This document shows positions 33,474-56,749 of a stretch of 64,000 bases of DNA, piece after piece; within the stretch, counting starts at the first letter, position 1; every line of letters begins with the position of its first letter. This stretch comes from Bacilli bacterium (GTDB taxonomy: Bacteria > Bacillota_I > Bacilli_A > RFN20 > CAG-826). Under the pieces are notes generated by a model. It was not told where the DNA came from. It did no database searches and saw only the letters and a program-made list of their open reading frames with translations. Location of the stretch: positions 23,760-87,759 of the forward strand of contig JBAYXD010000001.1 of NCBI GenBank assembly GCA_041673725.1, read 5' to 3'. The position numbers and the translations under genes were made by a program.

Positions 33474-34517
33474 TTAATCCTCTACTTTCTTGTTGAATTG
33501 ATTAATGAAACGAATATCGTTTGAATAAATTCGACGAATATCATCAATACCATAACGAAGCATTGCAACACGATCAATTCCAACACCAAAAGCAAAACCA
33601 CTATATACTTCTGGATCATAACCAGACATTTTTAAAACATTTGGATGAACCATTCCAGCTCCAAGAATTTCTATCCAACCACTACCTTTGCAAGTTGGAC
33701 ATCCTTTTCCATGACATTTAAAGCAACTGATATCAACCTCAACAGATGGTTCAGTAAATGGAAAATAAGAAGATCTAAAGCGAACTTTTGAATCTTTTGA
33801 AAACATTTCTTTTGCAAATAATTCAAGTGTTCCTTTTAAATTAGCTAAATTAATATTCTTATCAATAACTAAACCTTCAACTTGAGCAAATTGATGACTA
33901 TGTGTCATATCATCGTCATCTCGACGATAACATTTGCCAGGGCAAATAACCTTGATTGGTTTACCTTTAGCAAGGCGCATAATCTGTGGTTGCATCGAAC
34001 TTGTTTGGGTTCGAAGTAATAAATTATCATTAATATAGAAAGAATCTTGCATATCTCTAGCAGGATGATCACGAGGAATATTAACTAATTCAAAGTTATA
34101 TTCATCAGTAACAACTTCTGGTCCTTCATGAACTTCATAACCCATACCAATAAAAATATCTTCAATTTCACCTAAAACTTTATAGAAAGGATTGTTCTTC
34201 CCTTCAATATGATTTATTCCAGGTAAAGTTATATCAATAGATTCATTTGCTAAAGCCTTTTCAAGTTCGATAGACTTAGCTTTTTCAAGTTTATCATTAA
34301 GTGCATTTTCAACAGTCATACGTGCATTATTAACGATTTGACCATAACTTTTCTTCTCTTCTATAGATAATTCTTTCATCTTAAGCATTAACGATGAAAT
34401 ACTACCTTTTTTAGATAGATATTTGTTACGACACTCATTAATTTCATCAAGGGTATTAGCTTTATTAATATCAGCTAAAGCCTCTTTTACCAATGATTCA
34501 ACAGCATTTTCTTCCAT
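33474..34517 (-). CDS. pheS: phenylalanine--tRNA ligase alpha subunit
   Basis: class-II motifs (FRSSYFPFTEPS, GAGMVHP), 347 aa; RBS AGGAG. Confidence 0.95.
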   Translation of the reverse strand: MEENAVESLVKEALADINKANTLDEINECRNKYLSKKGSISSLMLKMKELSIEEKKSYGQIVNNARMTVENALNDKLEKAKSIELEKALANESIDITLPGINHIEGKNNPFYKVLGEIEDIFIGMGYEVHEGPEVVTDEYNFELVNIPRDHPARDMQDSFYINDNLLLRTQTSSMQPQIMRLAKGKPIKVICPGKCYRRDDDDMTHSHQFAQVEGLVIDKNINLANLKGTLELFAKEMFSKDSKVRFRSSYFPFTEPSVEVDISCFKCHGKGCPTCKGSGWIEILGAGMVHPNVLKMSGYDPEVYSGFAFGVGIDRVAMLRYGIDDIRRIYSNDIRFINQFNKKVED

Positions 34518-34532: not shown

Positions 34533-34793
34533 CTAACCTTTTAAACCATCCGATTGTCTTTGCATATTTTCAACAACAACATCACTAATATCACCAATAG
34601 ATTGGGCATATTCAAGAATTTGCCATGGCTCATTAGTATGGAAATGAATCTTAATTAAAGTGTCATCTCCGACAGCAATTAAGCAATCACCCTTAAAATG
34701 TTCAGTAATATACTTATTTATTTCATCCTCATTTAAACCAGTCCCATTAATTAACAATTGCGTATCAAACTTAAATTCTAATTTTTCTGACAT
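34533..34793 (-). CDS. small protein resembling the central segment of DAK2-fusion protein YloV
   Basis: 86 aa from MSEKLEF; GDCLIAVGDDTLIKIHFHTNEPWQILEYAQSIGDISDVVVENMQRQ closely matches the YloV region GDSL-VVgdddlvkVHvHTndPgkvle-a--lGeL--ikieNMreQ; RBS AAAGGAGAAAC; sits between T-box and pheS. Confidence 0.45.
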   Translation of the reverse strand: MSEKLEFKFDTQLLINGTGLNEDEINKYITEHFKGDCLIAVGDDTLIKIHFHTNEPWQILEYAQSIGDISDVVVENMQRQSDGLKG

Positions 34794-34799
34794 ATTTGT

Positions 34800-35075
34800 T
34801 TCTCCTTTAGAAATAAAAAAAGAACTAGTTAGGAGCGAATTTCTCCGCGGTACCATCCTAATTCTTAATTAAACTTAATTAAACTATTTAACGCATAGAA
34901 TGCGGGTTCATCAAACCTGCTCAGAGGTGAATTTCATAGGTCTAATCGAAATGTTTCCACTATCCATTTCTCACTAGAAATTAGTAACTCTATTACTACT
35001 CCTCATCAACGCATTAATATAATATCATTTTATTAATTTTTCTTCACTACTTTTTGAAGGCAAAAAATACTGAAT
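34800..35075 (-). promoter_or_regulatory. T-box riboswitch leader (presumed Phe specifier) controlling the small ORF and pheST
   Basis: minus-strand T-box sequence AGGATGGTACCGCGG (plus coords 34845-34859), then a short stem and T7 run just before the RBS. Confidence 0.6.
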
Positions 35076-35090
35076 AGGGAATATTCATTT

Positions 35091-35654
35091 TTAATTGTAA
35101 TTAGTAAAGAATCTTTCGGCTTCATCTACAAACTCTTCAAAATTAAAGTCTTTATTTTGTAGGCCTTTATGCACAATTGCTCCATCAGTTAATAAAAGAA
35201 TCAACCACGATAAGAATTTTGCATCTTCAGGTTTACATTCAGTTTTAATTCTTTCGTAGATAGATTTGTTAAAAAGATTGTATTTCTCAATCATTTTTGT
35301 CTTTAAAACTTCATTCCCATTCGTGCACTCAGCAAGTAAATTGATTCGCATAGATGGATAACTAGTTCCTTTTAAGAGAACAAACTTAACAATACGATGA
35401 AGAGAAGTATCCTTATCTTTATTATCTATCCAAGTGATTAAATCATTATATAATTCATCGATTCTCCTCGAAAAGATGTCATAAACAATATCACTCTTAT
35501 TTTGATAATAGTAATAAATTGTACCACTGCTTATTTTGCAACTCTTCGCTACATCTCTTAAAGAGATATCAGAAAAATTTTTATTTACTAATAATTTTTC
35601 AGTTTCCTTAAGAATTAATTCTTTGATGTTTTCGCTATTTCTTTTTCTTGCCAT
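35091..35654 (-). CDS. TetR/AcrR family transcriptional regulator
   Basis: N-terminal HTH LRDVAKSCKISSGTIYYYYQNKSDIV, 187 aa, divergent from the flavoenzyme cluster. Confidence 0.8.
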   Translation of the reverse strand: MARKRNSENIKELILKETEKLLVNKNFSDISLRDVAKSCKISSGTIYYYYQNKSDIVYDIFSRRIDELYNDLITWIDNKDKDTSLHRIVKFVLLKGTSYPSMRINLLAECTNGNEVLKTKMIEKYNLFNKSIYERIKTECKPEDAKFLSWLILLLTDGAIVHKGLQNKDFNFEEFVDEAERFFTNYN

Positions 35655-35715
35655 AAAAATGTCCTCTAAAATCCATTGTTTTTAATTTATGAATATTATA
35701 TACTAATTTTATTAA

Positions 35716-35731
35716 ATCGGTCAATCGACCG
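35716..35731. promoter_or_regulatory. candidate TetR operator palindrome in the divergent intergenic region
   Basis: TCGGTC-AATC-GACCGA perfect 6-bp inverted repeat, GC-rich island in an AT-rich spacer, about 25 nt upstream of the RBS of the plus-strand cluster. Confidence 0.45.
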
Positions 35732-35753
35732 ACATAAGTTTGGAAGGTTACAT

Positions 35754-37463
35754 ATGAAAATCAAAAAATTAGAAAAAAAGTTTAAGAAACTCTATCCTTC
35801 AATTAATGTTGAAGAAAAAGATGGTTGTGTCCATTTAACCGGTACTCTCGATAATTGGGATGATATCGTTAATGCTGGTTATTTATCTGTTGATAAAAAG
35901 CGTTATATTGGTGTTCTTAACGATATAAAGTTAAAAGATTTCGTTGAACCAACCATGAGAATTCCAAAAGTAGTCGATAAATCACTTGAGGGATTAAAAG
36001 TTGATTGTCTTGTAATTGGAGGCGGAATATCTGGCACTTCAATCCTCAGAGAACTCATGCGTTATAACGTTTCGGCTTTATTAGTTGAAAAAGAATCTGA
36101 TTTAGCTATGCAAGCAAGTGGACGAAACGATGGAGAAGTTCATCCAGGTGTCGACTTAAATAAAGGTAGCAAAAAACAATACTATGTTGTTAGATCAAAC
36201 CCAGATTTTGGAAAGATTTGTGATGAACTGGGCGTTGATTTTTTTCGTAGAGGTCAATATGCTTGTTTTGATAAACCTCTAAGTCCAATATTAAAATTAT
36301 TTGCTAAATTCCGTACAAAAAATGGATGCCCTACTGAAGTTGCTAGTAAAAAAGAAATTGAAGAAAAAGAGAAATTCTTTAATAAAAATGTAAAATGCGC
36401 AGTTTCTAATCCTCAATCAGGAGTTGTTTCGCCATATGAATTAACCATTGCTTTTGCAGAAAACGCAGTTGCAAATGGAGCAAAAGTTTCGTTAGATACT
36501 GCAGTTTTAGGAATAAATGTTGAAAATAACCGAATAATTTCAGTGGTTACAAATAGAGGAATAATCTATCCAAAAGTTGTTATCAATGCTGCCGGATGTT
36601 TTTCAGATAAAATAGCCGAAATGGCTCATGATAGATTTTTCACTATTCATCCACGTTGTGGAACTGACTATATATTAGATAATAAGGTCAGCAATCAAAT
36701 TAACCATATTTCTTCTATTATGGGTAAAACAAATAATAAGAAAAAACATTCTAAAGGTGGAGGAATTGTTAAAACTATTGATAATAATATTTTAATTGGT
36801 CCTAATGCTCACGAAACACCATATCGTGAAGATTTTTCTGTTACTTCTTGTTCGTTAGATGAAATACTACATAAACAAGAAAGACTTCTTCCAACATTAA
36901 ATAAAAAAGATATCATCGCATATTTTAGCGGTACAAGAGCTGCAACATATGAAGAAGATTTTTATATTAGCAAAGGATTAAGAACAAAAAATATTGTTCA
37001 TTGCGCTGGAATACAATCTCCTGGGTTAACCACTGCACCACTCGTTGCTAAAGATATTAGCAAGATGGCAATTGAGGAATTAAAAGAAATTCAAAATGTT
37101 GATATTAATCCTAAATTCAATCCTATTCGCAAAAAAGATCCTGTTTTAAGAAAACTAAGTAACGAAGAAAGAACTGAATTAATCAAAAAGAATCCAAGCT
37201 ATGGACGTATTGTCTGTCGTTGCGAACAAATTAGTGAAGGTGAAATTGTTGATTGTTTAAACCGTAACATAAAAGTTCCAACAATAAATGGAATTAAAAG
37301 ACGTGTACGACCTGGGATGGGTCGATGCCAAGGAGGATTTTGTATGCCATTGGTCGCAAAAATTATTGCTGATCATGAACATATAAATATTTATGATGTT
37401 AAGGGAAAACAAATGGATAATCCAGTAACTTTCAAATCTACGAAAGGAGAAAACCATGAATAA
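35754..37463 (+). CDS. FAD-dependent oxidoreductase, GlpA/LhgO-like, with C-terminal BFD-like [2Fe-2S] domain
   Basis: start refined to ATG at 35754 (RBS GGAAGG); dinucleotide fold VIGGGISGTS...LLVEKESD; C-terminal CRCEQISEGEIVDCL...GMGRCQGGFC BFD motif. Confidence 0.75.
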   Translation: MKIKKLEKKFKKLYPSINVEEKDGCVHLTGTLDNWDDIVNAGYLSVDKKRYIGVLNDIKLKDFVEPTMRIPKVVDKSLEGLKVDCLVIGGGISGTSILRELMRYNVSALLVEKESDLAMQASGRNDGEVHPGVDLNKGSKKQYYVVRSNPDFGKICDELGVDFFRRGQYACFDKPLSPILKLFAKFRTKNGCPTEVASKKEIEEKEKFFNKNVKCAVSNPQSGVVSPYELTIAFAENAVANGAKVSLDTAVLGINVENNRIISVVTNRGIIYPKVVINAAGCFSDKIAEMAHDRFFTIHPRCGTDYILDNKVSNQINHISSIMGKTNNKKKHSKGGGIVKTIDNNILIGPNAHETPYREDFSVTSCSLDEILHKQERLLPTLNKKDIIAYFSGTRAATYEEDFYISKGLRTKNIVHCAGIQSPGLTTAPLVAKDISKMAIEELKEIQNVDINPKFNPIRKKDPVLRKLSNEERTELIKKNPSYGRIVCRCEQISEGEIVDCLNRNIKVPTINGIKRRVRPGMGRCQGGFCMPLVAKIIADHEHINIYDVKGKQMDNPVTFKSTKGENHE

Positions 37464-38700
37464 GTACGATACAATCGTAATTGGTGGCGGACCAGCAGGT
37501 CTTGCTGCTGCAATCAGTGCCCATAATAATGGTGCTAATGTATTTTTAATTGAACGTGAAGCTAGACTTGGAGGTATTTTAAAACAATGTATCCATGATG
37601 GCTTTGGTTTACTCTATTTTAATGAAAAACTTTCTGGTCCTGAATATGCTCAAAATTTTATTGACAAGTTTAATGATTTAAAAATCGAATCCACTACTAA
37701 CAGTTTTGTTACTAAAATTATTAAAAAAGATAATCTATTTTATATCGATTATGTTTCCGAAAAAGGTATGCAAACCGTTATTTCGAAAACACTTATTTTA
37801 TCGACAGGATGTCGAGAAAGAACTTCTAAACAAGTGTTTATCAACGGAACAAGACCATATGGAGTATTTTCTGCTGGTACTGCTCAATATTTTACAAATA
37901 TATTAGGGGTTCTACCTGCTAAGAAATGTGTAATTTTAGGAAGTGGCGATATTGGTTTAATTATGGCTCGAAGATTAACTCTCGAAGGCGTGAAAGTTTT
38001 GGGAGTATATGAAATTCTTCCATCCCCATCAGGTTTAACCCGAAATATTCATCAATGTTTACTCGATTATAATATTCCACTACATCTATCCCATACTGTA
38101 ACGAGATTATTTGGTGAAAATCGTTTAGAAGCTGTTGAAATATCCAAAGTTGATGAAAAACTTCAACCAATTAAAGGTACGGAAGAGAAAATTGAATGTG
38201 ATGCCTTGATTCTTTCTGTAGGTTTACTTCCTGAAAACGAATTAGCTGAATCACTTGGTGTTCCACTTGATCCAAGAACTAGAGGACCAATTGTAAATGA
38301 AGATTATATGACAATGGTCGATGGAGTCTTTACTTGTGGAAACGCAATGCAAGTAAATGATTTAGTGGATTATGTCTCATTCACTGCTGAAAAAGCAGGT
38401 ATGAGTGCTGCAAAATACGCAATTCAAAATAGAAGTTATAATGAAGTAAGTGCTTCGAAAGATTTTGGTTATGTTTTGCCTCAAAGATTATCTAAAGAAA
38501 TTAAAGAAGAAAATGTCGACTTTTACTTCCGTTCAAAAAAGATTGAAGAAAAAGTTCAAGTACAATTGATCTCTAATGACAAAGTTGTATTTTCAAAAAC
38601 TTATATGCATCTAAAACCACCAGAAATGGAAAAGATTACTATTAAATCTAGTGATTTAAATGTTGATGGTAATCTTGAACTTATTATGAAAAGAGGTTAA
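37456..38700 (+). CDS. FAD/NAD(P)-binding pyridine nucleotide-disulfide oxidoreductase (NADH-oxidase-like partner subunit)
   Basis: IVIGGGPAGLAAA FAD fold, second Rossmann motif ILGSGDIGLIMA, 414 aa; start overlaps the upstream gene stop. Confidence 0.75.
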   Translation: MNKYDTIVIGGGPAGLAAAISAHNNGANVFLIEREARLGGILKQCIHDGFGLLYFNEKLSGPEYAQNFIDKFNDLKIESTTNSFVTKIIKKDNLFYIDYVSEKGMQTVISKTLILSTGCRERTSKQVFINGTRPYGVFSAGTAQYFTNILGVLPAKKCVILGSGDIGLIMARRLTLEGVKVLGVYEILPSPSGLTRNIHQCLLDYNIPLHLSHTVTRLFGENRLEAVEISKVDEKLQPIKGTEEKIECDALILSVGLLPENELAESLGVPLDPRTRGPIVNEDYMTMVDGVFTCGNAMQVNDLVDYVSFTAEKAGMSAAKYAIQNRSYNEVSASKDFGYVLPQRLSKEIKEENVDFYFRSKKIEEKVQVQLISNDKVVFSKTYMHLKPPEMEKITIKSSDLNVDGNLELIMKRG

Positions 38701-38702
38701 TT

Positions 38703-39071
38703 ATGAAAGAATTATCATGTATTGTATGTCCAAATAGTTGCTCTCTTAAAGTTGAATTGGTTGATGGAAAATATGTTGTTACTGGTAATAAATGTAAACG
38801 TGGAGAAAACTTTGCAATTAACGAAATGACTCGACCAATGCGAACTATTTCTTCTACTGTTCGTACAACATTTAGTGATGCACCAGTCGTTCCAGTTAGG
38901 GTATCTAGTGAAATTCCTAAAGATAAAATATTTGATGTTATGAAAGAAATTAATAAAGTAGTCCTTAATAAAAGAGTAAAAAGAGGCTATAAAGTAATTA
39001 GTAATTGTCTAGATTTAAATATTGATGTTATCGTCACTAGTAATGTATTAGTTGATAAAAAAGGAGAATAA
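38703..39071 (+). CDS. DUF1667 Cys-rich small subunit of the GlpA-like complex
   Basis: 122 aa; N-terminal CIVCPNSCSL...GNKCKRGENF Cys cluster typical of DUF1667; co-located with the two flavoproteins. Confidence 0.6.
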   Translation: MKELSCIVCPNSCSLKVELVDGKYVVTGNKCKRGENFAINEMTRPMRTISSTVRTTFSDAPVVPVRVSSEIPKDKIFDVMKEINKVVLNKRVKRGYKVISNCLDLNIDVIVTSNVLVDKKGE

Positions 39072-39072
39072 G

Positions 39073-40614
39073 ATGCCAAATACTGAACCGTTAGTTTTCT
39101 CGTTTGACTTTGGTACCCAAAGCGTCCGAGCAATGCTTGTTGATAAGGATGGAAAAATTGTCTCTTTAGTTAGAGAAAAATATAATCCCCCTTATTATTC
39201 AAAAAAGATAGGCTATGCTGAGCAATCATTTGATACCTACTATAAATATGCTTGCATTGCCGCAAAATCTTTAAAAGAAAAGAATAAGAAATTATTTGAT
39301 CAAATAATTTGCGTTACCATCACCACTATTCGTGATACCTTCACTTGTAGTGATGAAAAAGGTAAACCAATTAGAGATTTTATTTTATGGTTAGATCAAA
39401 GAAGAGCAACTCATCATGAAAAGATGCCACTTTATAAGAGGATATTATTTAAAGCAGTAAGTATGGATTATGCTCTTGAAAGACAAAGAGAAATTTGTCG
39501 TCCAGCCTGGATTAAAGAAAATGAACCTGATATTTGGGAAAATACAAAAAAATTTAGTAATATTAGTGCAATTTTAAATGCTAAGTTAACCGGAAATTAT
39601 GTCGATTGTAACGCCTCTTGTATTGGTCACGTTCCATTTAATTATAAAACTAGAAATTGGATGAAAGAAAATGAACTTACTTATCCTTTATTTGAATTAG
39701 AACCAGATAAATTTATTAAAATTGTCACTCCAACTTCCCAAATTGGAAAAATAACTAAAGAAGCAGGCAACGAAACCGGATTAAAAGAAGGTTTACCTGT
39801 AATTGCTAGCGGTTCGGATAAAGGTTGCGAAACTATTGGCTCCGGCGTTATGAATAATTATTCAGCAGCTTTATCGATGGGAACAAGTGCAACTATTCAA
39901 TTTGCTACAAGAAAATATGTCGAACCAGCCAAGTTTTTACCCGCTTATCCATCTCCTAATCCAGATTTTTATAATCCTGAATTACAAGTTATGCGAGCAG
40001 GATGGATGTTTAGTTGGTTTATTGAAAACTTTGGTTTTGAAGACAAATTAATTGCGGAAAAGGAAGGTGTTTCACCTGAACACGTAATTAATCGTCAACT
40101 AGATAAAGTTCCATTAGGTTCTGGAGGATTATTACTACTTCCATACTGGAATGCACCACTAAAACAACCTGAAGCTCGAGGAACTATCTTAGGTTTTATG
40201 CCAGATCACAATAAATACTATATCTATCGAGCAATTATTGAAGGTGTCGTCTTTACTTTATATCAAGGATTCCAAACCTTAGAAAAAAATTCAAAACATC
40301 ATACTAGATATCTAGTAATCTCTGGAGGAAGTTCAGTAAGCGAAACAATTTGTCAAATCGTTGCTGATATCTTCAATCTTCCAGTTAAAAGGTCTAGAGA
40401 AAGTGAAGCTTGTGGTTTAGGTTCAGCAATGTGTGGATTTGTTGGGATGGGAGTTTATAAGTCATTTGATGAAGCGGCTAAAAATATGGTCCACTACTCA
40501 AAGACTTACGAACCAATAAAAGAAAATCATCTTGAATACGAAGAGATATATCGTAAAAAATTTGTAAAACTATATCCAAGTATTCGTGGTGTATATCGTA
40601 ACTATATTAAATAG
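39073..40614 (+). CDS. FGGY-family carbohydrate/polyol kinase (not canonical GlpK)
   Basis: start refined to ATG at 39073 (RBS AAAGGAG); phosphate-1 motif FDFGTQSVRA; FGGY N- and C-domains (SGGSSVSE); lacks the GlpK DQGTTSSR signature. Confidence 0.7.
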   Translation: MPNTEPLVFSFDFGTQSVRAMLVDKDGKIVSLVREKYNPPYYSKKIGYAEQSFDTYYKYACIAAKSLKEKNKKLFDQIICVTITTIRDTFTCSDEKGKPIRDFILWLDQRRATHHEKMPLYKRILFKAVSMDYALERQREICRPAWIKENEPDIWENTKKFSNISAILNAKLTGNYVDCNASCIGHVPFNYKTRNWMKENELTYPLFELEPDKFIKIVTPTSQIGKITKEAGNETGLKEGLPVIASGSDKGCETIGSGVMNNYSAALSMGTSATIQFATRKYVEPAKFLPAYPSPNPDFYNPELQVMRAGWMFSWFIENFGFEDKLIAEKEGVSPEHVINRQLDKVPLGSGGLLLLPYWNAPLKQPEARGTILGFMPDHNKYYIYRAIIEGVVFTLYQGFQTLEKNSKHHTRYLVISGGSSVSETICQIVADIFNLPVKRSRESEACGLGSAMCGFVGMGVYKSFDEAAKNMVHYSKTYEPIKENHLEYEEIYRKKFVKLYPSIRGVYRNYIK

Positions 40615-40631
40615 AAAAGGAAACAAAAAAA

Positions 40632-42365
40632 ATGAGCAAAAAGAAACAAGGTTTTTTACCAAAATGGGTTACTGAGGAAGCTTCTCCTAGATCTTATAGA
40701 TCTATTTCTCGATGGGGAGATCCAAAATTTGTAAAGTATCCAAAACCAGCTTTATATGAATTTATGAAGCAAACTTTTAAGATGACAGATGAAGATTTTA
40801 ACCATTACCATAACGATACTGGTTTTGAAGATGTTAATATTAAAATCCCAACCAAAATGGCTGAAAAAGACATCAAAGCTTTAAGCAAGATTGTTGGTAA
40901 TAAGAATGCATCTTTAGATGAATATGATAGATTATCCGTTATGTATGGCAAGACTTTATATGATGTCATGCGAATCCGTGAACACAAGTTTGATAGTGTC
41001 CCTGATTTAGTCTTATATCCAGAAACAACCGAACAAATCGAGAAAATAGTTGCTTATTGCACTACTAATAAAATACCACTTTATGTTTATGGAGGTGGTT
41101 CTAGTGTTACGCGAGGTGTTGAACCTGTTAAAGGTGGTGTATCTTTAGATATGCGTCGTAACTTTAATAAAGTATTAGGTTTTAATGAAATTGATCAAAC
41201 TATAACTGTTCAAGCTGGTATGAGTGGACCAGATTTAGAGCACCACTTAAATAATGCAATTAAAGAATTTAATGCAAAACGTGCTTTTACTTGTGGTCAC
41301 TTTCCACAATCCTTTGAATATTCTTCAGTTGGTGGTTGGGTTGTAACTCGTGGTGCTGGTCAAAATAGTACTTATTATGGTGTTATTGCAGATATTGTAT
41401 TATCACAAAAATATGCGACTCCAATCGGAACAATTAAGACTTCCCACTACCCAAGAGAATCGACTGGACCAAACCTCAATCAAATCATGATGGGTTCAGA
41501 AGGCACCTTTGGTGTTTTAACTGAAGTTACCCTTAAAGTGTTTAGATATATGCCAGAAAATCGTAAAAGATATTCATATATGTTTAAGACTTGGGAAGAT
41601 GCTATGAATGCCGCAAGAGAAATCATGCAAAGTGAAGATGGTTATCCATCAGCCTTTAGAGTTAGTGATGCAGAAGAAACTGATATGATGCTTAAACTAT
41701 ACAACGTTGATGAATCTCCACTTCGTCTATTCTTAAAAGGCTTTGAACCAATGAAACGAAGTTTAATGCTTGGTTTCACTGAAGGTGATACTGGTTATTC
41801 TAAAAATATTCGTAAAACTATTGCTCGTGTTGCAAGAAAATATCATGCTCGTTCATTAACTGGTATTGTTTGTAAGAGTTGGGAACATGGTAGATTCACT
41901 GATCCATATTTACGTGATACACTCTTAGATTTTGGTATTGCTACTGATACCTTAGAGTGCACTGTTAATTGGTCAAATATGGCAAAAGTTCATGAAGAAG
42001 TTCGTAAAATTTGTCATGCTAGACCAAATACTGTTGTTACAACTCACTTATCACATGCTTATCCACAAGGTGCAAACCTTTACTTTATCTTTATTACTCA
42101 TAGTGAAACTAGTGATGACTTCAAAAAATATCACTCCACTATTCTTGATGCAATTCAAAAAAGTGGCGCTGCAATCTCACATCACCATGGTATCGGTAAG
42201 ATGTTTGCTCCATGGCTTGAAGGCTATATAGGTAGAAAAGAATATGGTGTCTATCATGCGTTAAAAGACTACTTCGATAAAGATTATCTCATGAATCCAG
42301 GCGGAACAATTGGTCTTGATTTAAAAGAAAAAGACAAAAAGTTCTTAAATAAAGACGTTAAATAA
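40632..42365 (+). CDS. FAD-linked oxidase of the alkyldihydroxyacetonephosphate synthase (AGPS)-like subfamily
   Basis: 577 aa; pre-FAD N-terminal extension with RWGDPKF; PCMH FAD domain VYGGGSSVTRGVEP; strong blocks shared with animal AGPS (FEYSSVGGWVVTRGAG, STGPNLNQIMMGSEGTFGV, SHHHGIGK...NPG). Confidence 0.7.
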   Translation: MSKKKQGFLPKWVTEEASPRSYRSISRWGDPKFVKYPKPALYEFMKQTFKMTDEDFNHYHNDTGFEDVNIKIPTKMAEKDIKALSKIVGNKNASLDEYDRLSVMYGKTLYDVMRIREHKFDSVPDLVLYPETTEQIEKIVAYCTTNKIPLYVYGGGSSVTRGVEPVKGGVSLDMRRNFNKVLGFNEIDQTITVQAGMSGPDLEHHLNNAIKEFNAKRAFTCGHFPQSFEYSSVGGWVVTRGAGQNSTYYGVIADIVLSQKYATPIGTIKTSHYPRESTGPNLNQIMMGSEGTFGVLTEVTLKVFRYMPENRKRYSYMFKTWEDAMNAAREIMQSEDGYPSAFRVSDAEETDMMLKLYNVDESPLRLFLKGFEPMKRSLMLGFTEGDTGYSKNIRKTIARVARKYHARSLTGIVCKSWEHGRFTDPYLRDTLLDFGIATDTLECTVNWSNMAKVHEEVRKICHARPNTVVTTHLSHAYPQGANLYFIFITHSETSDDFKKYHSTILDAIQKSGAAISHHHGIGKMFAPWLEGYIGRKEYGVYHALKDYFDKDYLMNPGGTIGLDLKEKDKKFLNKDVK

Positions 42366-42397
42366 AAAATAAAGCTCCTTAATTGGAGCTTTTTAAA
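42366..42397. terminator. bidirectional intrinsic terminator between AGPS-like gene and TrmH gene
   Basis: AAAAAATAA-AAGCTCC-ttaatt-GGAGCTT-TTTT; convergent gene ends. Confidence 0.6.
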
Positions 42398-43857: not shown

Positions 43858-44934
43858 ATGGAAACTATTATTGTAAGTGCTTGTTTATTAGGCGATAAAT
43901 GCCGTTATGATGGCAAAGATAACTATAACGATAACGTTAAGTTTTTAAAAGAACACTTTAATATTGTTCCTATTTGTCCTGAAGTTTTTGGTGGAATGTC
44001 TACTCCACGTGTTCCAAGTGAACAACGTGAAGGTTCTGTTGTTGATAAGAATGGAAAAGATGTTACTAAGTATTTTGAAAAAGGTCGAGATGATGTATTA
44101 AATATTGTTAAATATCTCCATATAAGAAAAGCTGTTTTAACTGAAAACTCCCCTTCTTGTGGAATTCATAAGGTCTATAATGGTCGTTTTAATAATACTT
44201 TAATTGATGGTAATGGTATCACCACTAAAGCTCTTTTAGAGTTAGGTGTTGCTTGTTATAGCATCGATGAAGTTGAAAAATTAATTGATAAGACTCAAAA
44301 ACAACTTTACGAAATTAAAGAACAAGAAATTCTTGAACACGAAAGAATCAATAAAGAAAAAGCAGCTAAGAATGCGGAGTATTCCACTATTGATAACAAA
44401 GCTTATCAAGAAAAGAGACGTGCTGAACGTAGCAATTATTCAAAAGATGGTGATTATAGTTCAAATAGAAGAGAAGGATATTCAAGAGGATATTCATCTC
44501 GTTCTAGAGATGATAATTATAGTAATCGTAATAGCGAACCAAGAAGCGGCTATTCAAGAGGTTATTCTTCTCGTTCTAGAGATGATAACTATAGTAATCG
44601 TGGAGATTCACGAGGCAATTATTCAAGAAGTTCTACTCGTGATGGCGATAGACCATATTCTTCACGCCCATATAAAAAGAGTTACTCAAATAATTATTCT
44701 AGAGATTCTAATTCTCGTGATGATAGTCGTTCCTATTCTTCTAGAACTCCTAGAAGATCCTATGATAATAATTATTCAAGAGATTCTAATAGTCGCGATA
44801 GTAGCCGTTCATATTCTTCTAGATCTACTGGAAGAAGCTATTCAAAAGGTTATTCATCAAATTCAAGAAGTTCATATAATACACGTAATAAATCAAGCTA
44901 TTCAAAACCAAAAGACAATGATGAAGGTAAATAA
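43858..44934 (+). CDS. DUF523 (TudS-like thiouracil/thiouridine desulfidase, [4Fe-4S]) domain fused to a long Arg/Ser/Tyr-rich repetitive low-complexity tail
   Basis: residues 1-140: IIVSACLLGDKCRYDG, CPEVFGGMSTPRVPSE, ENSPSCGIHKVYNGRFNNTLIDGNGITTKAL match the DUF523/TudS Cys triad signature; residues about 190-358 made of GYSRGYSSRSRDDNYSNR and NNYSRDSNSRDDSRSYSSR type repeats. Confidence 0.75.
   Translation: METIIVSACLLGDKCRYDGKDNYNDNVKFLKEHFNIVPICPEVFGGMSTPRVPSEQREGSVVDKNGKDVTKYFEKGRDDVLNIVKYLHIRKAVLTENSPSCGIHKVYNGRFNNTLIDGNGITTKALLELGVACYSIDEVEKLIDKTQKQLYEIKEQEILEHERINKEKAAKNAEYSTIDNKAYQEKRRAERSNYSKDGDYSSNRREGYSRGYSSRSRDDNYSNRNSEPRSGYSRGYSSRSRDDNYSNRGDSRGNYSRSSTRDGDRPYSSRPYKKSYSNNYSRDSNSRDDSRSYSSRTPRRSYDNNYSRDSNSRDSSRSYSSRSTGRSYSKGYSSNSRSSYNTRNKSSYSKPKDNDEGK
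44476..44841 (+). repeat. in-frame imperfect tandem repeats inside the RS-tail coding region
   Basis: two 72-nt units (44476-44547, 44548-44619) and two roughly 75-78-nt units (44689-44766, 44767-44841) encoding the RS/Y-rich peptide repeats. Confidence 0.7.
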
Positions 44935-45458
44935 TGACTAAAACGAGATTCATAATCATTAAAATCTCTTTAACTGGTTTAATGATTGCGCTTATTTATG
45001 TTTGCACAGCTTTTTTAAGCATTCCTTTTGCGAACGGTGCTGGTTATTTTAATTTTAGTGATTGTTTAATTCTTTTTACGAGTATTTATATTGGACCTGT
45101 TGAAGGAATTTTAAGCGCGATTATTAGTTGTGCTTTAGCGGATTTACAAGCTGGTGCAGCCCAATTTATTCCATTTACTATCGTTGCTAAAGGACTCGAA
45201 GCAATCGTTGCTTTCTTAATCTATAAACCACTTAAAAATCATAATATTTTAAAATATATCTCAGTTGTTATTGCTCCACTATTTATGGTCGCAACTTACT
45301 TTTTAGCTTATATTTTATTATTTGATATTAGTTATACTTTTAATTCAATATTTGATTTAATTCAAGGACTTGTTGGTTCAATCCTTGCAATTACACTACT
45401 TAAACTATTTTCAAGAATTCCGCTTGAAAACTTAATCCATAATAAAAAAGAAGATTGA
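44934..45458 (+). CDS. ECF-transporter S-component-like small membrane protein (FolT/ECF_trnsprt-like)
   Basis: 174 aa, 5-6 TM; motif FSDCLILFTSIYIGPVEGILSAI resembles the FolT-type FSDVPALLAALLFGPVAGI; start overlaps the upstream stop (TAATG). Confidence 0.55.
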   Translation: MTKTRFIIIKISLTGLMIALIYVCTAFLSIPFANGAGYFNFSDCLILFTSIYIGPVEGILSAIISCALADLQAGAAQFIPFTIVAKGLEAIVAFLIYKPLKNHNILKYISVVIAPLFMVATYFLAYILLFDISYTFNSIFDLIQGLVGSILAITLLKLFSRIPLENLIHNKKED

Positions 45459-45485: not shown

Positions 45486-47933
45486 TTATAATTTTGAACC
45501 TTTAATTTGTTCATCAAGTTTTACTTGATCAATTTTAGTTAAGTGCCAAATATCTTTGTTATAGCCTTCAATTGTTCGATCACTTGAGAAATATCCAGAC
45601 TCAGCAATATTTACTAAACAACTTCTTTGCCAAGCTTTTGGATCTTCATAATACTTTTCAATCTTCTTGCATTCATCAATATATGCAGGTAAATCCTTAA
45701 AAATTAAGTATTCATCATTATGATTCATAAGTTCATTAAAGATTCCTTTGAAACGATCTGGAATATCTTCACACCATGGGCCATTAAATAAACTATCAAG
45801 AACCCAACGTAACTTATTGTTATTGTTATATTCATCCCAAGCATTATAAGTTCCATCGGCAGTAATCTTTTCAATATCTTTAACTTTTAAACCAAAGATA
45901 AAGGCATTATCTTTACCTACTTTATCTAAAATTTCAACATTAGCTCCATCAAGAGTTCCAAGTGTTAAAGCCCCATTCATCATAAACTTCATATTGCTAG
46001 TACCACTTGCTTCTTTTCCAGCAGTTGAAATTTGTTCACTAATATCGGCCGCAGGGATAATCTTCTCAGCAATAGACACACCATAATTTGTCATAAAGAC
46101 AACTTTAATATATTTATTTACTTCAGGATCATTATTAACTACTTTTGCTACAGCGTTAATTAATTCAATAATCTCTTTAGCAAATACATAACTTGGAGCA
46201 GCTTTAGCACCAAAAATGTAGGTATGAGGATACATTTTAAAACTCTTGTTAGTTTTAATTTCGTGATATAGCATCATAATCTTAAATACATTCATAAGTT
46301 GACGTTTATAAGCATGTAATCGCTTAATTTGAACATCAAATATAGAATTTTCATCGACTACTACACCATAATTATCATTAATATATTTAGCAAGTTTAAT
46401 CTTGTTATGCTTTTTAATTTCAGCTAATTCTTTAAGGGTTCCTTCGTCATCTTTAAATTTTAATAAATCTTTTAAACCCTCTTCAGGATTAGTAATCCAA
46501 TTTTCACCAATCTTATCAGTGATTAACTTAGATAATTCTGGGTTAGCATACATTAACCAACGACGATGAGTTACACCATTTGTTTCGTTATGGAACTTTT
46601 CAGGGAAATATTTATAGAATTCTTTAAAAGTAATTTTCTCTAAGATATCAGTATGAATTGCGGCAACACCATTAATACTAAAAGCACAATAAATAGCTAA
46701 GTTAGTCATTCTAACAAAACCATCTTTAATGATGAGCATATTGTCTTTTTCATCGCTCTTGACGTTATTTTTAGACATCCAAATAAGCATTCTACGTTGA
46801 ATTTCTTCAATAATCATATAACAACGTGGAACAAGTCTTTGAATATATTGAACTGGCCATTTTTCTAAAGCTTCAGGCATAATTGTATGATTTGTATAAG
46901 CAAAACAATGGGTTACTTGATTCCAAGCATCATCCCATCCATATCCATATTCATCCATAAGTAATCTCATCATTTCAGGAATCGCTAAAATTGGATGAGT
47001 ATCATTTAATTGGAAAACAGTTTTATTTGAAAAATCATCAAGACTACCATGTCTTCTAACAAATCCACGCATTAATGATTGTAATCCAGCACTAACAAAG
47101 AAATATTGTTGACGTAGTCTTAATAATTTACCATGTTCAGTTGAATCATCTGGATATAAACCATGACATAATTCTTTTAAAGTTGTTAGATAATCTTCAA
47201 AAGTAACATCACTTGGTAAATCTGATTCACTAGGTTGAGCACTCCATAAACGTAAAGAGTTAGCTAAATTATTATGATAACCAACAACCGAAACATCATA
47301 TGGCATAGCTAATACTTTAGTCGCACCAACGGTACGAATTCCATAACCACCATCAGGTTTAAGATAAGTTTCAGCGTTTCCATAGAAACTAACTTCAACA
47401 GCATGTTTTGGTTTTCTTACTTCCCAAACATAACCATTAGTTAACCATTGATCTGGTAATTCAACTTGTTTTTCATCAACAATCTTTTGTTTAAAGAATC
47501 CGTATTCATAACGAATACAATTGCCGTGTCCAACATAACCTAAACTTGCAATTGAATCCATAAAACATGCTGCTAATCGACCTAATCCACCATTTCCAAG
47601 TCCAGCATCAGACTCGACATCTTCAAGTTCGCCAATATCAGTACCAAGTTCACTTAATCCATCTCGGCAAATATCATAAATACCAAGATTCATTAAATTA
47701 CTAGTCATCAATCGACCAATTAAAAATTCCATTGAGAAATAAATTAATTGCTTTTCATCATTTTTTAAGACATATTCACGAGTATTACGCCAATCAGTAC
47801 CGGCATAATCACGAATCATTTCACCTAAAATATCATACTTTTCTAAAATATGAGCTTCAGATGGAAATTTTCCATACTTTTCAGTTAAACGTTCTGTAAA
47901 TTCCTTTTTAAACTCTTCTTTATTAGTAAACAT
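45486..47933 (-). CDS. glgP: glycogen/maltodextrin phosphorylase
   Basis: 815 aa; PLP-lysine region EASGTSNMKFMMNGALTLGTLDGANVEI. Confidence 0.9.
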   Translation of the reverse strand: MFTNKEEFKKEFTERLTEKYGKFPSEAHILEKYDILGEMIRDYAGTDWRNTREYVLKNDEKQLIYFSMEFLIGRLMTSNLMNLGIYDICRDGLSELGTDIGELEDVESDAGLGNGGLGRLAACFMDSIASLGYVGHGNCIRYEYGFFKQKIVDEKQVELPDQWLTNGYVWEVRKPKHAVEVSFYGNAETYLKPDGGYGIRTVGATKVLAMPYDVSVVGYHNNLANSLRLWSAQPSESDLPSDVTFEDYLTTLKELCHGLYPDDSTEHGKLLRLRQQYFFVSAGLQSLMRGFVRRHGSLDDFSNKTVFQLNDTHPILAIPEMMRLLMDEYGYGWDDAWNQVTHCFAYTNHTIMPEALEKWPVQYIQRLVPRCYMIIEEIQRRMLIWMSKNNVKSDEKDNMLIIKDGFVRMTNLAIYCAFSINGVAAIHTDILEKITFKEFYKYFPEKFHNETNGVTHRRWLMYANPELSKLITDKIGENWITNPEEGLKDLLKFKDDEGTLKELAEIKKHNKIKLAKYINDNYGVVVDENSIFDVQIKRLHAYKRQLMNVFKIMMLYHEIKTNKSFKMYPHTYIFGAKAAPSYVFAKEIIELINAVAKVVNNDPEVNKYIKVVFMTNYGVSIAEKIIPAADISEQISTAGKEASGTSNMKFMMNGALTLGTLDGANVEILDKVGKDNAFIFGLKVKDIEKITADGTYNAWDEYNNNNKLRWVLDSLFNGPWCEDIPDRFKGIFNELMNHNDEYLIFKDLPAYIDECKKIEKYYEDPKAWQRSCLVNIAESGYFSSDRTIEGYNKDIWHLTKIDQVKLDEQIKGSKL

Positions 47934-47964
47934 AAAATTTCCCTTTCCTTCGCCTAAATATCAA

Positions 47965-49926
47965 CTATTTTTTAGCTGCTGCATTTACGGGACTAACCAC
48001 TTTAGTGTCTTCGGCAGGTTGTCCATTCTTATGCGCATATTTGAAAATCATTGCGGCATATCCACCCATTTTGACACAAATCTTATGAGGCTTTTCTTCT
48101 GGACCATAATAATAAGACATTAATGGAAGACCATTATAGTTATTAGTTCCACCATAAACATCTTTATCGCTATTAAAGATTTCTTCGTAAGTACCTTCAC
48201 GAGTCAAACCAATATCATAAGATTCATAATAATTTGGAGTCATATTAAAGATAAATACAAGATGACTATCGCCAACTCTTCTTTCAAAAGCAAATACACT
48301 ATCATTCGCATTGTTGACCATCAACCAATTAAAGTGAACTGGATTATATTCTTCAGTGTGCATTGCTGGCTCATGGGCATAAATTAAGTTTAAATCACGA
48401 ATGAGACGTGAAACACTATCGTGTTTTGGGAATCTCTTTAATTCCCATGGTAATGATTTTGTTTCGTTCCATTCATCAAAACTAGCAAGTTCGTTGCCCA
48501 TAAAACTTAACTTCTTTCCTGGGTGAGCATATTGATAGGTATAAAGATTACGAATAAGAGCAAACTTTGTATCATAATCACCATACATTTTATTAATAAT
48601 TGTTCCTTTACCATGAACGACTTCATCGTGGCTTAAAGGCAACAAGAAGTTTTCACTATAAAAGTACATCATTGAGAAAGTAATTTTATTATGTTCCCAC
48701 TTCTTATAAACTGGGTCTTTAGCGTAATACTTTAAAGTATCGTTCATCCACCCTAGATCCCATTTATAATCAAATCCTAAACCACCATATTCAAGAGCAC
48801 GAGTAGTTCCATTATAATCAGTACTATCTTCAGCTATCATCATAACACTTGGGTGTTTATAATGAATTTTGCCATTCAATCTACGAATAAACTCGGTACC
48901 ACCCGTATTTTCACCTCTTTGTTTATTTCCTTCCCAATAAATAATATTACTAACTGCATCAACACGAATACCATCCATATGAAAGTATTCAAGAAAATAA
49001 TTCATTGCAGACATTAAGAAGCTTCTAACTGGATCTTTTCCAAGATCAAATTGGAGTGAACCCCATGGTGAATACATGTGTTCATTGCCATATTCATATT
49101 GGCAACTTCCATCAAAATGATTTAATGCCCAACTATCAACAGCAAAATGCACAGGTGCGAAATCCAAAATTACACCAATTCCAGCTTGATGCATTCGGTC
49201 CACAAAGGACATGAGTTGCATTGGGTTTCCATAAGTTGAATCAACACTAAAGAAACCAGTGGCTTGATAGCCCCAACTACCTTCAAATGGATATTGAGTA
49301 ATAGGCATTATTTCAATATGGGTATATCCAAGTCCTTTTAGATAAGGAATTAAGTAATCAGCAATTTCTTCATACGATAAGAAACGTCCATCAACTTTAC
49401 CTTTCCAACTTCCCAAATGCATTTCATAAATAGACATTGGTTCATCAAAATTTCTACTTCTGCTATTTAAGAATGGGCGATCATGCCATATAAATCCTTC
49501 GATATTAAATAGTCTTGAGCAACTTCCTGGTCGATATTCACTAAAGAATGCAAATGGATCGGCTTTATCAACGTATTCTCCATTACAATTTTTAAAATGA
49601 TATTTATAGAAAGCGTAATTATGTAAGTTTGGTATAAATATTTCAAATACACCGCAATCATCAATCTTTTTCATCTTACTAGTTTTTGGATCCCAATTAT
49701 TAAAATCACCAATAACTGAAACATCACTAGCAAGAGGCGCATATAGTCTAAAGACTACTCCATCAACAAGTCTCATACTTGTTGCTTTTTTCGTTTTTGT
49801 TGGATCTTTTTTAAGTGGTATGTCAATTATAACTTCGACCTTTTGCTTAACAAAATGTGCACCAAAATACGAATAAGCTTCAATTGTTTGTCCAGACAAA
49901 TAATCAGCTAAAATTCCGTATGCCAT
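47965..49926 (-). CDS. glgB: 1,4-alpha-glucan branching enzyme (GH13_9)
   Basis: 653 aa; N-terminal CBM48-like region, GH13 catalytic regions (GIGVILDFAPVH, MDGIRVDAVSNIIY). Confidence 0.9.
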   Translation of the reverse strand: MAYGILADYLSGQTIEAYSYFGAHFVKQKVEVIIDIPLKKDPTKTKKATSMRLVDGVVFRLYAPLASDVSVIGDFNNWDPKTSKMKKIDDCGVFEIFIPNLHNYAFYKYHFKNCNGEYVDKADPFAFFSEYRPGSCSRLFNIEGFIWHDRPFLNSRSRNFDEPMSIYEMHLGSWKGKVDGRFLSYEEIADYLIPYLKGLGYTHIEIMPITQYPFEGSWGYQATGFFSVDSTYGNPMQLMSFVDRMHQAGIGVILDFAPVHFAVDSWALNHFDGSCQYEYGNEHMYSPWGSLQFDLGKDPVRSFLMSAMNYFLEYFHMDGIRVDAVSNIIYWEGNKQRGENTGGTEFIRRLNGKIHYKHPSVMMIAEDSTDYNGTTRALEYGGLGFDYKWDLGWMNDTLKYYAKDPVYKKWEHNKITFSMMYFYSENFLLPLSHDEVVHGKGTIINKMYGDYDTKFALIRNLYTYQYAHPGKKLSFMGNELASFDEWNETKSLPWELKRFPKHDSVSRLIRDLNLIYAHEPAMHTEEYNPVHFNWLMVNNANDSVFAFERRVGDSHLVFIFNMTPNYYESYDIGLTREGTYEEIFNSDKDVYGGTNNYNGLPLMSYYYGPEEKPHKICVKMGGYAAMIFKYAHKNGQPAEDTKVVSPVNAAAKK

Positions 49927-50029
49927 ATTTGCTCCTTCATCTACCTATTATTTTACTAGATATATTAGTAATTTTACATATAGAAAACGTGTTTTTTTCA
50001 CTTTGCAAAAATACTTACAGAAAATTTAC

Positions 50030-50071
50030 ATAAAGAAAAAGACTAGAACAATTTATTATCGTTCTAGTCTT
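50030..50071 (-). terminator. intrinsic terminator after the PHP gene
   Basis: minus-strand stem AGACTAGAAC-loop-GTTCTAGTCT followed by TTTTTCTTT; overlaps the PHP stop codon. Confidence 0.5.
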
Positions 50072-50876: not shown

Positions 50877-50939
50877 CCCTAAATAATATCACAACTACTA
50901 TTATCTTTTAAAATAAATACTAGAAAATTACTAATAAAA

Positions 50940-50963
50940 AACATCAACCGAAGTTGATGTTAT
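50940..50963 (-). terminator. terminator hairpin after the small ORF
   Basis: minus-strand CATCAAC-ttcg-GTTGATG followed by TTTTT. Confidence 0.45.
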
Positions 50964-50969
50964 CATCAA

Positions 50970-51125
50970 TTAGTCTTGTTGATCTTTGTTATCGTTGTAA
51001 ATCTTGAACAAACAAGCATTTGGGGTAAATTGTCCAATATATGGTGTTCCAACATTGCCGATACATACTAGTTCGTAATCTTGATTTTCATCATAACTTT
51101 CATTTTCATAATCTTCTACAAACAT
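50970..51125 (-). CDS. small hypothetical protein (51 aa)
   Basis: RBS AAGGAGG 9 nt before ATG (MFVEDYENESYDEN...); acidic N-terminus; followed by a terminator. Confidence 0.35.
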   Translation of the reverse strand: MFVEDYENESYDENQDYELVCIGNVGTPYIGQFTPNACLFKIYNDNKDQQD

Positions 51126-51206
51126 ATTCAATTTCCTCCTTGCATTTTCAATTTTAGGAGAAAAAAAATTAAAAACAAGAATATTGTCGACCACATCGAA
51201 TGAATA

Positions 51207-51220
51207 TAAGCGCTTTCAGT
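51207..51220. promoter_or_regulatory. possible cre-like element (one mismatch to consensus) upstream of the small ORF
   Basis: TATAAGCGCTTTCA, reverse complement TGAAAGCGCTTATA versus consensus TGWAANCGNTNWCA. Confidence 0.25.
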
Positions 51221-51305
51221 AACCGCTTACAATTAAAAATGTTAGGAATACAGCCTATTTAAATTACAAGAATTCAGAAATTATGAAAGTGTTTTCAAAA
51301 AAAAC

Positions 51306-52022: not shown

Positions 52023-52023
52023 C

Positions 52024-52590: not shown

Positions 52591-52598
52591 AAATCCTC

Positions 52599-55136: not shown

Positions 55137-55148
55137 ACTTTTGTCCTC

Positions 55149-56747: not shown

Positions 56748-56749
56748 AA

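Follow-up and report, generated by a model that had tools for sequence, protein, structure and literature searches.

The window analysed here is a 64,000-nucleotide stretch from the genome of a Bacilli bacterium (GTDB CAG-826; GenBank assembly GCA_041673725.1, contig JBAYXD010000001.1, positions 23,760 to 87,759 of the forward strand), and the subject of this report is a gene at 40632..42365 encoding a flavoprotein related to alkyldihydroxyacetonephosphate synthase (AGPS; EC 2.5.1.26). The gene ends a run of five tightly packed genes on one strand, with the gene for a TetR-family regulator divergent, in DNA whose GC content (0.29-0.32) is as low as the original prediction, a first reading of the window, had held. 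The encoded protein belongs to a subfamily, termed here Gln-type, that is set apart from canonical AGPS by its clade, by one conserved residue and by its gene partners. The features of the locus, in coordinates of the window, are as follows.

35091..35654, minus strand: TetR-family regulator, 187 residues, presumed repressor of the operon (Pfam TetR_N, 1.9e-9)
35677..35737, plus strand: intergenic region with a presumed control function
35677-35705, plus strand: candidate promoter TTGTTT-17 nt-TATACT, read by eye
35712-35737: inverted repeat TTAAATCGGTC / GACCGACATAA with 11-nt arms, candidate TetR operator
35724-35695, minus strand: strong promoter-like site for the TetR gene (11/12 matches), overlapping the plus-strand candidate promoter and repeat region
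35754..37463, plus strand: homologue of GlpA-like flavin adenine dinucleotide (FAD)-dependent glycerol-3-phosphate (G3P) dehydrogenases/oxidases, 569 residues (Pfam DAO, 1e-53; Fer2_BFD, 1e-9)
37456..38700, plus strand: NAD(P)/FAD oxidoreductase of the pyridine-nucleotide-disulphide type, 414 residues (Pfam Pyr_redox_2, 8e-30)
38703..39071, plus strand: DUF1667 protein, 122 residues, third subunit of the GlpA-type complex (Pfam DUF1667, 2.6e-27)
39073..40614, plus strand: FGGY-family kinase, 513 residues (Pfam FGGY_N, FGGY_C)
40632..42365, plus strand: AGPS-like FAD flavoenzyme of the Gln-type subfamily, 577 residues, ATG start and TAA stop
42371..42392, both strands: bidirectional hairpin terminator AAAGCTCC-TTAATT-GGAGCTTT, terminator-like on either strand

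The AGPS-like protein belongs to the AGPS branch of the PCMH flavoenzymes. Its open reading frame (ORF), for which the original prediction had given exact coordinates, is preceded by a ribosome-binding site (AAAGGAAA), and the sequence blocks quoted there are all present (SISRWGDP, FEYSSVGGWVVTRGAG, STGPNLNQIMMGSEGTFGV, ISHHHGIGK and LMNPG). Pfam assigns FAD_binding_4 (PF01565, 8e-31) to residues 124-270 and FAD-oxidase_C (PF02913, 7e-32) to residues 308-557. Among sequences of the Protein Data Bank (PDB), the best match is Dictyostelium AGPS (2uuu; E 1.6e-72, residues 31-557), with guinea-pig AGPS (4bby) at 9e-57, and the next family is D-lactate dehydrogenase, at 2e-18 and over the FAD domain only. 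The structural matches of an AlphaFold model (pLDDT 92, pTM 0.90, built from 67 sequences) were headed by 37 AGPS chains (TM 0.70-0.85 over ~545-580 columns), D-lactate dehydrogenase again coming next, which bears out the earlier claim of a homology reaching beyond the generic PCMH fold. Residues 1-120 form an AGPS-type N-terminal domain with an RWGD motif at 27-30 and a helix at 39-49 that coincides with the position of the AGPS gating helix; residues 20-120 align with canonical AGPS N-termini, the (K/R)WG(D) element matching their WWGWGD motif. In the alignment this domain was not found in E. coli GlcD or YgcU, in agreement with the pre-FAD extension that had been described from the sequence. 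A review of the Dictyostelium structure describes the extra N-terminal domain with its gate-keeping helix as 'found only in ADPS'.

The same review states that R352, R447 and Y508 of the Dictyostelium enzyme are required for catalysis, and the requirement for AGPS catalytic residues comes from mutagenesis. On HMMER alignments to these residues and to those of the guinea-pig enzyme, the equivalents in the window protein are R343 (Dictyostelium R352, guinea-pig R419), R428 (Dictyostelium R447), Y484 (Dictyostelium Y508, guinea-pig Y578), H517-519 (guinea-pig H615-617) and S474 (guinea-pig T568), and the protein is predicted on this basis to keep the machinery that enolises a dihydroxyacetone phosphate (DHAP)-type ketone beside flavin N5. 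Membership of the GlcD, D-lactate dehydrogenase or D-2-hydroxyglutarate dehydrogenase families was considered and rejected on the PDB ranking, on the NCBIfam scores (139 bits against a cut-off of 568 for GlcD and 57 against 1350 for YdiJ, with GlcE also far under its cut-off), on the C-terminal motif, which reads SHHHGIG in the window protein and SGEHGIG in E. coli GlcD, and on the phylogeny.

The phylogeny was built by neighbour joining from 129 sequences, with E. coli GlcD as root, 100 bootstraps and M. xanthus MXAN_1676 left out; the sample was drawn from ~836 clusters (50%-identity representatives of an exhaustive search at E <=1e-30). A long branch splits GlcD from every AGPS-like sequence, and the window protein lies on the AGPS-like side of it, so that the placement within GlcD which the original prediction had named as its own refutation was not obtained. 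Bootstrap support of 90% was obtained for an 18-representative clade that includes the window protein and leaves out both the Dictyostelium and the guinea-pig AGPS. The Tyr, His and Arg residues whose conservation had been proposed as a check are all present, and the Arg/Ser/Tyr/Tyr/His-His-His signature is kept in all 128 AGPS-like sequences sampled, E. coli YgcU included. The catalytic residues were therefore dropped as a marker of true AGPS: being common to the whole AGPS-like superfamily (836 clusters at 50% identity), they are not diagnostic of ether-lipid synthases.

Clade-specific positions were sought by comparing the canonical with the window clade for residues that are conserved inside each but differ from one to the other. 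The cleanest discriminating position corresponds to Asp303 of the guinea-pig enzyme, in its GHxPDS loop, which is Asp in 15 of 15 canonical-clade sequences and Gln in 16 of 16 window-clade sequences; the window equivalent is Q226, in GHFPQSFEY. Gln is also found in 83 of the 95 remaining AGPS-like sequences, among them YgcU and three of the four GlpD fusion proteins (the fourth having Glu), giving 99 of the 111 non-canonical representatives in the tree sample. In inhibitor complexes of AGPS this residue reportedly lines the active site. Further clade-specific changes occur at guinea-pig positions 321, 508 and 527. The window protein is, on these sequence comparisons, best regarded as a paralogue of the ether-lipid AGPS, not its orthologue.

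Two unusual architectures were seen among the other sequences of the tree. Five AGPS-like proteins of 860-990 residues (P0179, P0216, P0237, P0264 and P0265) form their own clade, and the three scanned with Pfam (P0179, P0216 and P0265) have two FAD_binding_4 stretches in a tandem-duplicated architecture. In the sister group of the window clade, a NUDIX hydrolase is fused N-terminally to the Gln-type proteins P0127 and P0136 (L087:1185-3266); the single NUDIX-fusion context viewed, that of P0127, was uninformative, with a Glyoxalase_4 gene divergent upstream, as were the gene contexts of P0130 and P0226.

Finding an AGPS homologue in a Firmicute is in itself nothing new, as the family is common and already annotated. 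A word-index search returned >5,600 homologues at E <=1e-10, the top 120 of them 69-91% identical and from Clostridia, Lachnospiraceae, Mogibacterium, Clostridium cadaveris and Treponema, under database names such as 'FAD-binding oxidoreductase' (NCBI) and 'alkyldihydroxyacetonephosphate synthase' (JGI). A scan of one genome per GTDB species gave 80 window-clade loci (46-72% identity) from Clostridia, Spirochaetota, Anaerolineae, Dehalococcoidia, Desulfobacterota, Holophagae and Brevinematales; to judge by record titles, nearly all the loci belong to lineages and habitats that we regard as anaerobic.

Partners were counted in the 55 of these 80 loci with enough flanking DNA. A G3P-dehydrogenase-type gene of the DAO family is present in 46 of the 55, an FGGY kinase in 31, and Pyr_redox (and DUF1667) genes in 27. 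The dehydrogenase is of the GlpA-like type with BFD domain, reductase and DUF1667 protein in Firmicutes and some spirochaetes, and of the GlpD type (DAO plus DAO_C) in Chloroflexota, Desulfobacterota and others, and the linkage is very strong across these two non-orthologous types. It extends to AGPS-like-GlpD fusion proteins, which form four distinct clusters at 50% identity; two of the clusters come from genomes of Calditrichota and Fidelibacterota. By gene linkage, the functional partners of the AGPS-like enzyme are a G3P-dehydrogenase-type enzyme and a kinase. Regulators in related loci are of the TetR type (11) or the GntR/FCD-FadR_C type (18). No recurring transporter was seen across the window-clade loci, and no PlsC acyltransferase, short-chain dehydrogenase/reductase (SDR) or fatty-acyl reductase (FAR) was found near any of the 80 or in the window. 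Some loci without an FGGY gene have other genes directly 3' of the AGPS-like gene: DegV and FakA, of the fatty-acid kinase system, in L015, DegV in L038, and an iron-type alcohol dehydrogenase (Fe-ADH) in L014, DegV being confined to L015 and L038 among these loci. An AMP-dependent ligase gene lies 5' of the dehydrogenase gene in L030 and L037.

Two gene associations were noted beside this pattern. In the Deltaproteobacteria/Syntrophaceae-type loci L082, L084 and L076 (cluster c28), a gene for a DUF362 protein (~435-464 residues) separates or adjoins the AGPS-like and FGGY genes, and a 228-residue metallo-beta-lactamase-fold (Lactamase_B/ODP) gene (L090:6300-6986 and L091:2932-3618) lies directly 5' of the AGPS-like-GlpD fusion gene on both contigs with the fusion protein P0162.

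In the window, the first three genes of the operon form a GlpA-like dehydrogenase set by Pfam and NCBIfam, and the glycerol-phosphate-type cluster that had been proposed from the sequence is thus present. The GlpA-like protein has a C-terminal BFD-like [2Fe-2S] domain; its top NCBIfam models are type 2 G3P oxidase and GlpA, both under cut-off, and its top PDB match is Mycoplasma GlpO (4x9m, 2e-21). Its start was reset from TTG 35676 to ATG 35754; with this codon, served by a GGAAGG ribosome-binding site, the protein has 569 residues, as in the related locus L001 (GCA_964416025.1). An extension of ~85 residues (window 35754-36010) precedes the GxGxxG FAD motif of the protein; it is common to Firmicute-type loci and was also found in the cluster c1 representative (L014:6610-8331). 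A BON domain in this extension (E 0.005) was under cut-off and was not used as evidence. The Pyr_redox reductase, co-located in 35 related loci, is predicted to be the electron-transfer partner of the GlpA-like protein, and the DUF1667 gene is conserved 3' of the reductase gene in related loci.

For the kinase gene the start was placed at ATG 39073, which follows an AAAGGAG site, lies 1 nt beyond the stop codon of the DUF1667 gene and gives 513 residues as in L001. The kinase is under every NCBIfam cut-off, and in the PDB it matches gluconate kinase and LsrK at ~1e-31 and glycerol kinases at ~1e-18; it scores 178 bits with E. coli YgcE versus 44 bits with GlpK, and the operon kinases of AGPS-like loci are always nearer YgcE than GlpK. 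A role as glycerol kinase was rejected for the operon kinase, which is 21-27% identical to GlpK. In L013 and L019 the cluster is adjoined by a separate gene for a true GlpK, with 63-67% identity to that of E. coli, which makes the operon kinase an additional kinase. No homologue of GlpK, acyltransferase, FAR, SDR or diacylglycerol kinase (DAGK) was found elsewhere in the 64-kb window.

The inverted repeat between the divergent genes has the core TCGGTC-N4-GACCGA at 35717-35732 and is the operator candidate for the TetR protein, which probably represses the five-gene operon. The top NCBIfam match of this regulator is the Bacillus-type fatty-acid regulator FadR, far under cut-off, and a TetR gene occupies the equivalent place in L001 and 11 related loci. 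The hairpin at 42371..42392 ends both the operon and a convergent rRNA-methylase gene. In-frame TGA is absent from the five operon genes, TGG is the codon for all 15 of their Trp residues, and ORFs called with table 11 tile the window, which indicates the standard genetic code. The TetR gene and the five-gene block (window 35091-42392) are 74-91% identical in L001, where the flanks are entirely different, and the AGPS-like protein is ~70% identical in Clostridia, Treponema and a Bacteroidaceae metagenome-assembled genome; together, the differing flanks and the identity across these groups suggest that the module moves horizontally.

In other Gln-type clades the same roles recur in other arrangements. 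One has the order GlpD, AGPS-like, FGGY; another has AGPS-like and GlpD genes with a glycerophosphodiesterase gene nearby; and L098 has AGPS-like and GlpD genes followed by a DAGK_cat/YegS_C lipid kinase and then an Fe-ADH, an SCP2 lipid-carrier-like protein and an aldehyde:ferredoxin oxidoreductase. A G3P-dehydrogenase-type gene is adjacent or fused in L088, L097 and L098. A metagenome scan seeded on the L098 clade gave 80 loci, and an AGPS-like ORF could be called in 70; of these 70, 18 had a DAGK-type kinase gene within 3.5 kb, 20 a GlpD-type gene and none an FGGY kinase gene. Where at least 3 kb was available on both sides, DAGK and/or GlpD was present in 13 of 25 loci. The kinase role is held by two unrelated families, one of them annotated as lipid-acting, and since FGGY and DAGK swap across clades, the conserved unit is defined by roles, not by kinase family: a kinase, a G3P-dehydrogenase-type flavoprotein and a Gln-type AGPS-like enzyme. 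This displacement points to a glycerol-headed, possibly lipidic substrate.

The Asp-type bacterial genes have sharply different partners. In the three loci viewed (P0197, P0164 and P0221), a PlsC acyltransferase and an SDR flank the AGPS gene in each; a FAR-like NAD_binding_4 protein occurs in one (L095) and PKS-like genes in one, and a fourth Asp-type protein, P0156, is fused to an acyltransferase. These neighbours are the set expected for ether-lipid biosynthesis and match the putative acyltransferase and FAR functions assigned in the literature to the two Myxococcus ether-lipid operons.

It is tentatively proposed, with somewhat less than even confidence, that the AGPS-like enzyme exchanges or removes the C1 substituent of a substituted DHAP, in remodelling or breakdown rather than in de novo ether-lipid synthesis. 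The FGGY kinase would phosphorylate the free primary hydroxyl of a 1-O-substituted glycerol (an alkyl-, alkenyl- or acyl-glycerol or a smaller analogue), and the G3P-dehydrogenase-type flavoprotein would then oxidise C2 to give a 1-O-substituted DHAP. In the AGPS-like enzyme, the Tyr base, the two Arg residues and the His-His-His loop would enolise the ketone, C1 would become bound to flavin N5, and the C1 substituent would be expelled, its place being taken by water, a fatty acid or an alcohol. In sum, the glycerol backbone would have its C1 group exchanged or removed without any need for oxygen. We infer the substrates, the direction and the non-redox chemistry of the AGPS-like step; a fatty acid or alcohol is suggested as exchange partner by the lipid-kinase alternative, by the fatty-acid-kinase, ligase and ADH neighbours, by the fatty-acid-type regulators and by the absence of recurring transporters. 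The module mirrors the animal alkylglycerol kinase, alkyl-DHAP reductase and AGPS, which suggests ether-to-ester exchange or O2-free ether cleavage. In a more specific version, which we consider rather unlikely, the kinase/dehydrogenase/Gln-type module would be a widespread bacterial route for cleaving glyceryl ether lipids without O2: 1-O-alkyl(enyl)glycerol would be converted to alkyl-G3P and alkyl-DHAP, and the AGPS reaction would then run in reverse, a fatty acid or water displacing the fatty alcohol. Of the role in glycerol ether-lipid or acyl/alkyl-DHAP metabolism held plausible in the original prediction, acyl-/alkyl-DHAP-type chemistry stays the best reading, and de novo synthesis of the animal type is made unlikely by the clade, the Gln residue and the gene partners.

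Several points weigh against the proposed C1 exchange. The deeper backbone of the tree is without resolution, the DAGK-linked clades are 36-40% identical to the window protein, and the window protein has Q226 where the canonical clade has an invariant Asp, so that the chemistry may differ. The DegV, FakA, ADH and AMP-ligase neighbours occur in a minority of loci only, and no characterised member of the Gln-type branch was found in the literature. No FGGY kinase is known to have a lipid substrate. Every kinase listed in a 2011 survey of the FGGY family phosphorylates a soluble sugar or polyol; YgcE-like kinases are left out of that survey.

In an alternative that is possible, if doubtful, the AGPS-like protein would be a dehydrogenase with a redox role, its substrate being either DHAP itself or a soluble phosphorylated polyol or ketose of small size. 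The phosphate ester would be made by the FGGY kinase and oxidised successively by the two flavoproteins, electrons would exit via the Pyr_redox, DUF1667 and [2Fe-2S] components, and the AGPS-type residues would have no part beyond binding and enolising a DHAP-like ketone. Soluble sugars and polyols are the substrates of FGGY kinases, the operon kinase is nearest to gluconate kinase, LsrK and XylB types and, like the other kinases linked to AGPS-like genes, nearer to YgcE than to GlpK, and Q226 is unlike true AGPS; glyoxalase-family and metallo-beta-lactamase-fold neighbours in L087, L096 and L090 point the same way. The main support comes from the ygc cluster of E. coli K-12, where YgcU and YgcE occur with an electron-transfer flavoprotein (ETF; YgcQR), an ETF-quinone oxidoreductase (ETF-QO; YgcNO), an SDR, two sugar-type major facilitator superfamily (MFS) transporters and a GlpP-like antiterminator, with no G3P dehydrogenase. 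By analogy, this context suggests a better fit to a soluble substrate and a redox role than to the C1 exchange. Against a soluble substrate, 160 loci showed no conserved sugar or polyol transporter, isomerase or aldolase, other clades have a lipid-kinase family in the kinase role, the window protein keeps the AGPS-specific N-terminal gating domain that is absent from YgcU, and the fatty-acid kinase, DegV and ADH neighbours would be left unexplained.

A true alkyl-DHAP synthase, forming the ether bond de novo for ether lipids or plasmalogen precursors, appears improbable. It would account for AGPS as the top PDB and fold match, for the catalytic residues and the N-terminal domain, and for the adjoining G3P dehydrogenase, which would supply DHAP; the carriers are anaerobes of groups that contain ether lipids (Clostridia, Treponema, Desulfobacterota and Anaerolineae). 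The separate, bootstrap-supported clade and the Gln in place of Asp303 speak against it, and a DHAP/PlsC acyltransferase, fatty-acyl reductase and alkyl-DHAP reductase are encoded in neither the window nor the 80 related loci, whereas acyltransferase and SDR genes accompany all three canonical-type bacterial genes. Classical labelling work in Clostridium reportedly argued against a DHAP route to plasmalogens, and the Myxococcus AGPS is the sole validated bacterial one. A search for AGPS in the glycerol context of Clostridium found nothing relevant in the literature. It is very improbable that the AGPS-like protein is an accessory subunit of the G3P dehydrogenase complex with no catalytic role, or with electron transfer as its sole role. 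The tight operon and the fusions with G3P dehydrogenases would suit such a subunit, but the strict conservation of the AGPS catalytic residues over 836 clusters argues for selection for catalysis at the flavin, and canonical GlpA/Pyr_redox/DUF1667 glycerol operons are not known to need an AGPS-like protein.

What merits a closer look is the split into Asp-type and Gln-type proteins with their different gene partners, and the conserved three-enzyme module. Metagenome surveys of ether lipids count homologues of Myxococcus Agps at thresholds such as E <1e-30 and identity >=30%. The window protein matches canonical-type proteins at E ~1e-71 with 33-34% identity, and its type probably passes such cut-offs; the Asp/Gln position together with gene context offers a simple means of separating canonical from window-type genes. 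Gln-type proteins make up the majority of the sampled superfamily and are conserved among anaerobes of the gut and of sediments, in bacteria from soil and in E. coli. Read in reverse, the animal ether-lipid steps correspond one-to-one to the three roles of the module, which bears on O2-free turnover of ether lipids. Reviews describe alkylglycerol monooxygenase (AGMO) as the only enzyme known to break alkylglycerols (PMC7911779, PMC9192799); if the cleavage version is true, the module would be the first ether-lipid-cleaving route besides the O2- and tetrahydrobiopterin-dependent animal AGMO, and would assign a function to YgcU-like proteins of E. coli and Rv2251-like proteins of mycobacteria. 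No functional study of ygcU/ygcE or of Rv2251/Rv2249c/Rv3107c was found in the literature.

The rest of the window carries housekeeping, DNA-repair and glycogen/maltodextrin genes, none of them bearing on the wall-less state that the original prediction held possible. The valyl-tRNA synthetase (ValRS) encoded in the window is identical to a JGI metagenome protein, and its nearest named relatives are from an uncultured 'Bacilli bacterium' (76%) and Candidatus Onthovivens (67%). On the minus strand, a T-box leader (34828-35018; 106 bits) lies upstream of ORFs of 347 residues (33474-34517) and 795 residues (31083-33470), which have the sizes of pheS and pheT; a 107-residue ORF (34533-34856) overlaps the 3' end of the leader and is probably not a gene. 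An L21 ribosomal-protein leader (8292-8363, minus strand; 39.5 bits, just over the gathering score) is followed by three ORFs of ~101 residues at 7347-8274, probably rplU, ysxB and rpmA. A 913-residue ORF with a GTG start (1647-4388, minus strand) has no Pfam domain at E <=1e-5. The glycogen/maltodextrin block (45486-59154, minus strand) comprises glycogen phosphorylase, branching-enzyme-like, alpha-amylase and ATP-binding cassette (ABC) permease genes and encodes an unusually long MalK-like ABC ATPase of 844 residues. Within 43858-45458 (+), a 358-residue protein, which matches 2-thiouracil desulfurase (PF04463) over its first 135 residues, is directly followed by a riboflavin-type S component of an energy-coupling factor (ECF) transporter.

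Compared with known systems, the window protein has the same three-part architecture as the eukaryotic AGPS/ADPS enzymes (2uuu, 4bby), comprising N-terminal, PCMH FAD and cap domains, and matches them with TM values of 0.78-0.85 and 26-35% identity with conserved catalytic residues. The eukaryotic enzymes differ in belonging to another clade and in having Asp303 where the window protein has Gln, and the gene partners in the window are a G3P dehydrogenase and an FGGY kinase, not an acyltransferase, FAR or reductase. Canonical-type bacterial AGPS, as in Myxococcus xanthus MXAN_1676 and the Asp-type genes, is of the same superfamily with the same catalytic residues and keeps Asp303. M. xanthus is the sole bacterium with genetic evidence for AGPS function, and a 2026 study links the Myxococcus pathway genes to the eukaryotic ones through myxobacterial horizontal transfer. 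E. coli YgcU (b4463) is Gln-type (GHSPQS), with the His-His-His motif and the catalytic Tyr and Arg residues, and is likewise paired with an FGGY kinase, YgcE; it is 28% identical to the window protein and lacks the AGPS N-terminal domain.

The first three genes of the operon match the clusters of GlpA-like protein, NAD(P)H oxidoreductase and DUF1667 protein known from Clostridia, Thermotogae and Thermococcales, from which the window set differs in being joined to a non-GlpK FGGY kinase gene and an AGPS-like gene. The GlpD/AGPS-like/DAGK clusters (L098 and ~20 metagenome loci), which the Rv2249c (glpD1), Rv2251 and Rv2252 region of Mycobacterium tuberculosis presumably resembles, differ in having a DAGK_cat/YegS kinase and a GlpD-type dehydrogenase in place of the GlpA-like protein with Pyr_redox and DUF1667 partners, and follow the same three-role logic as the window operon.

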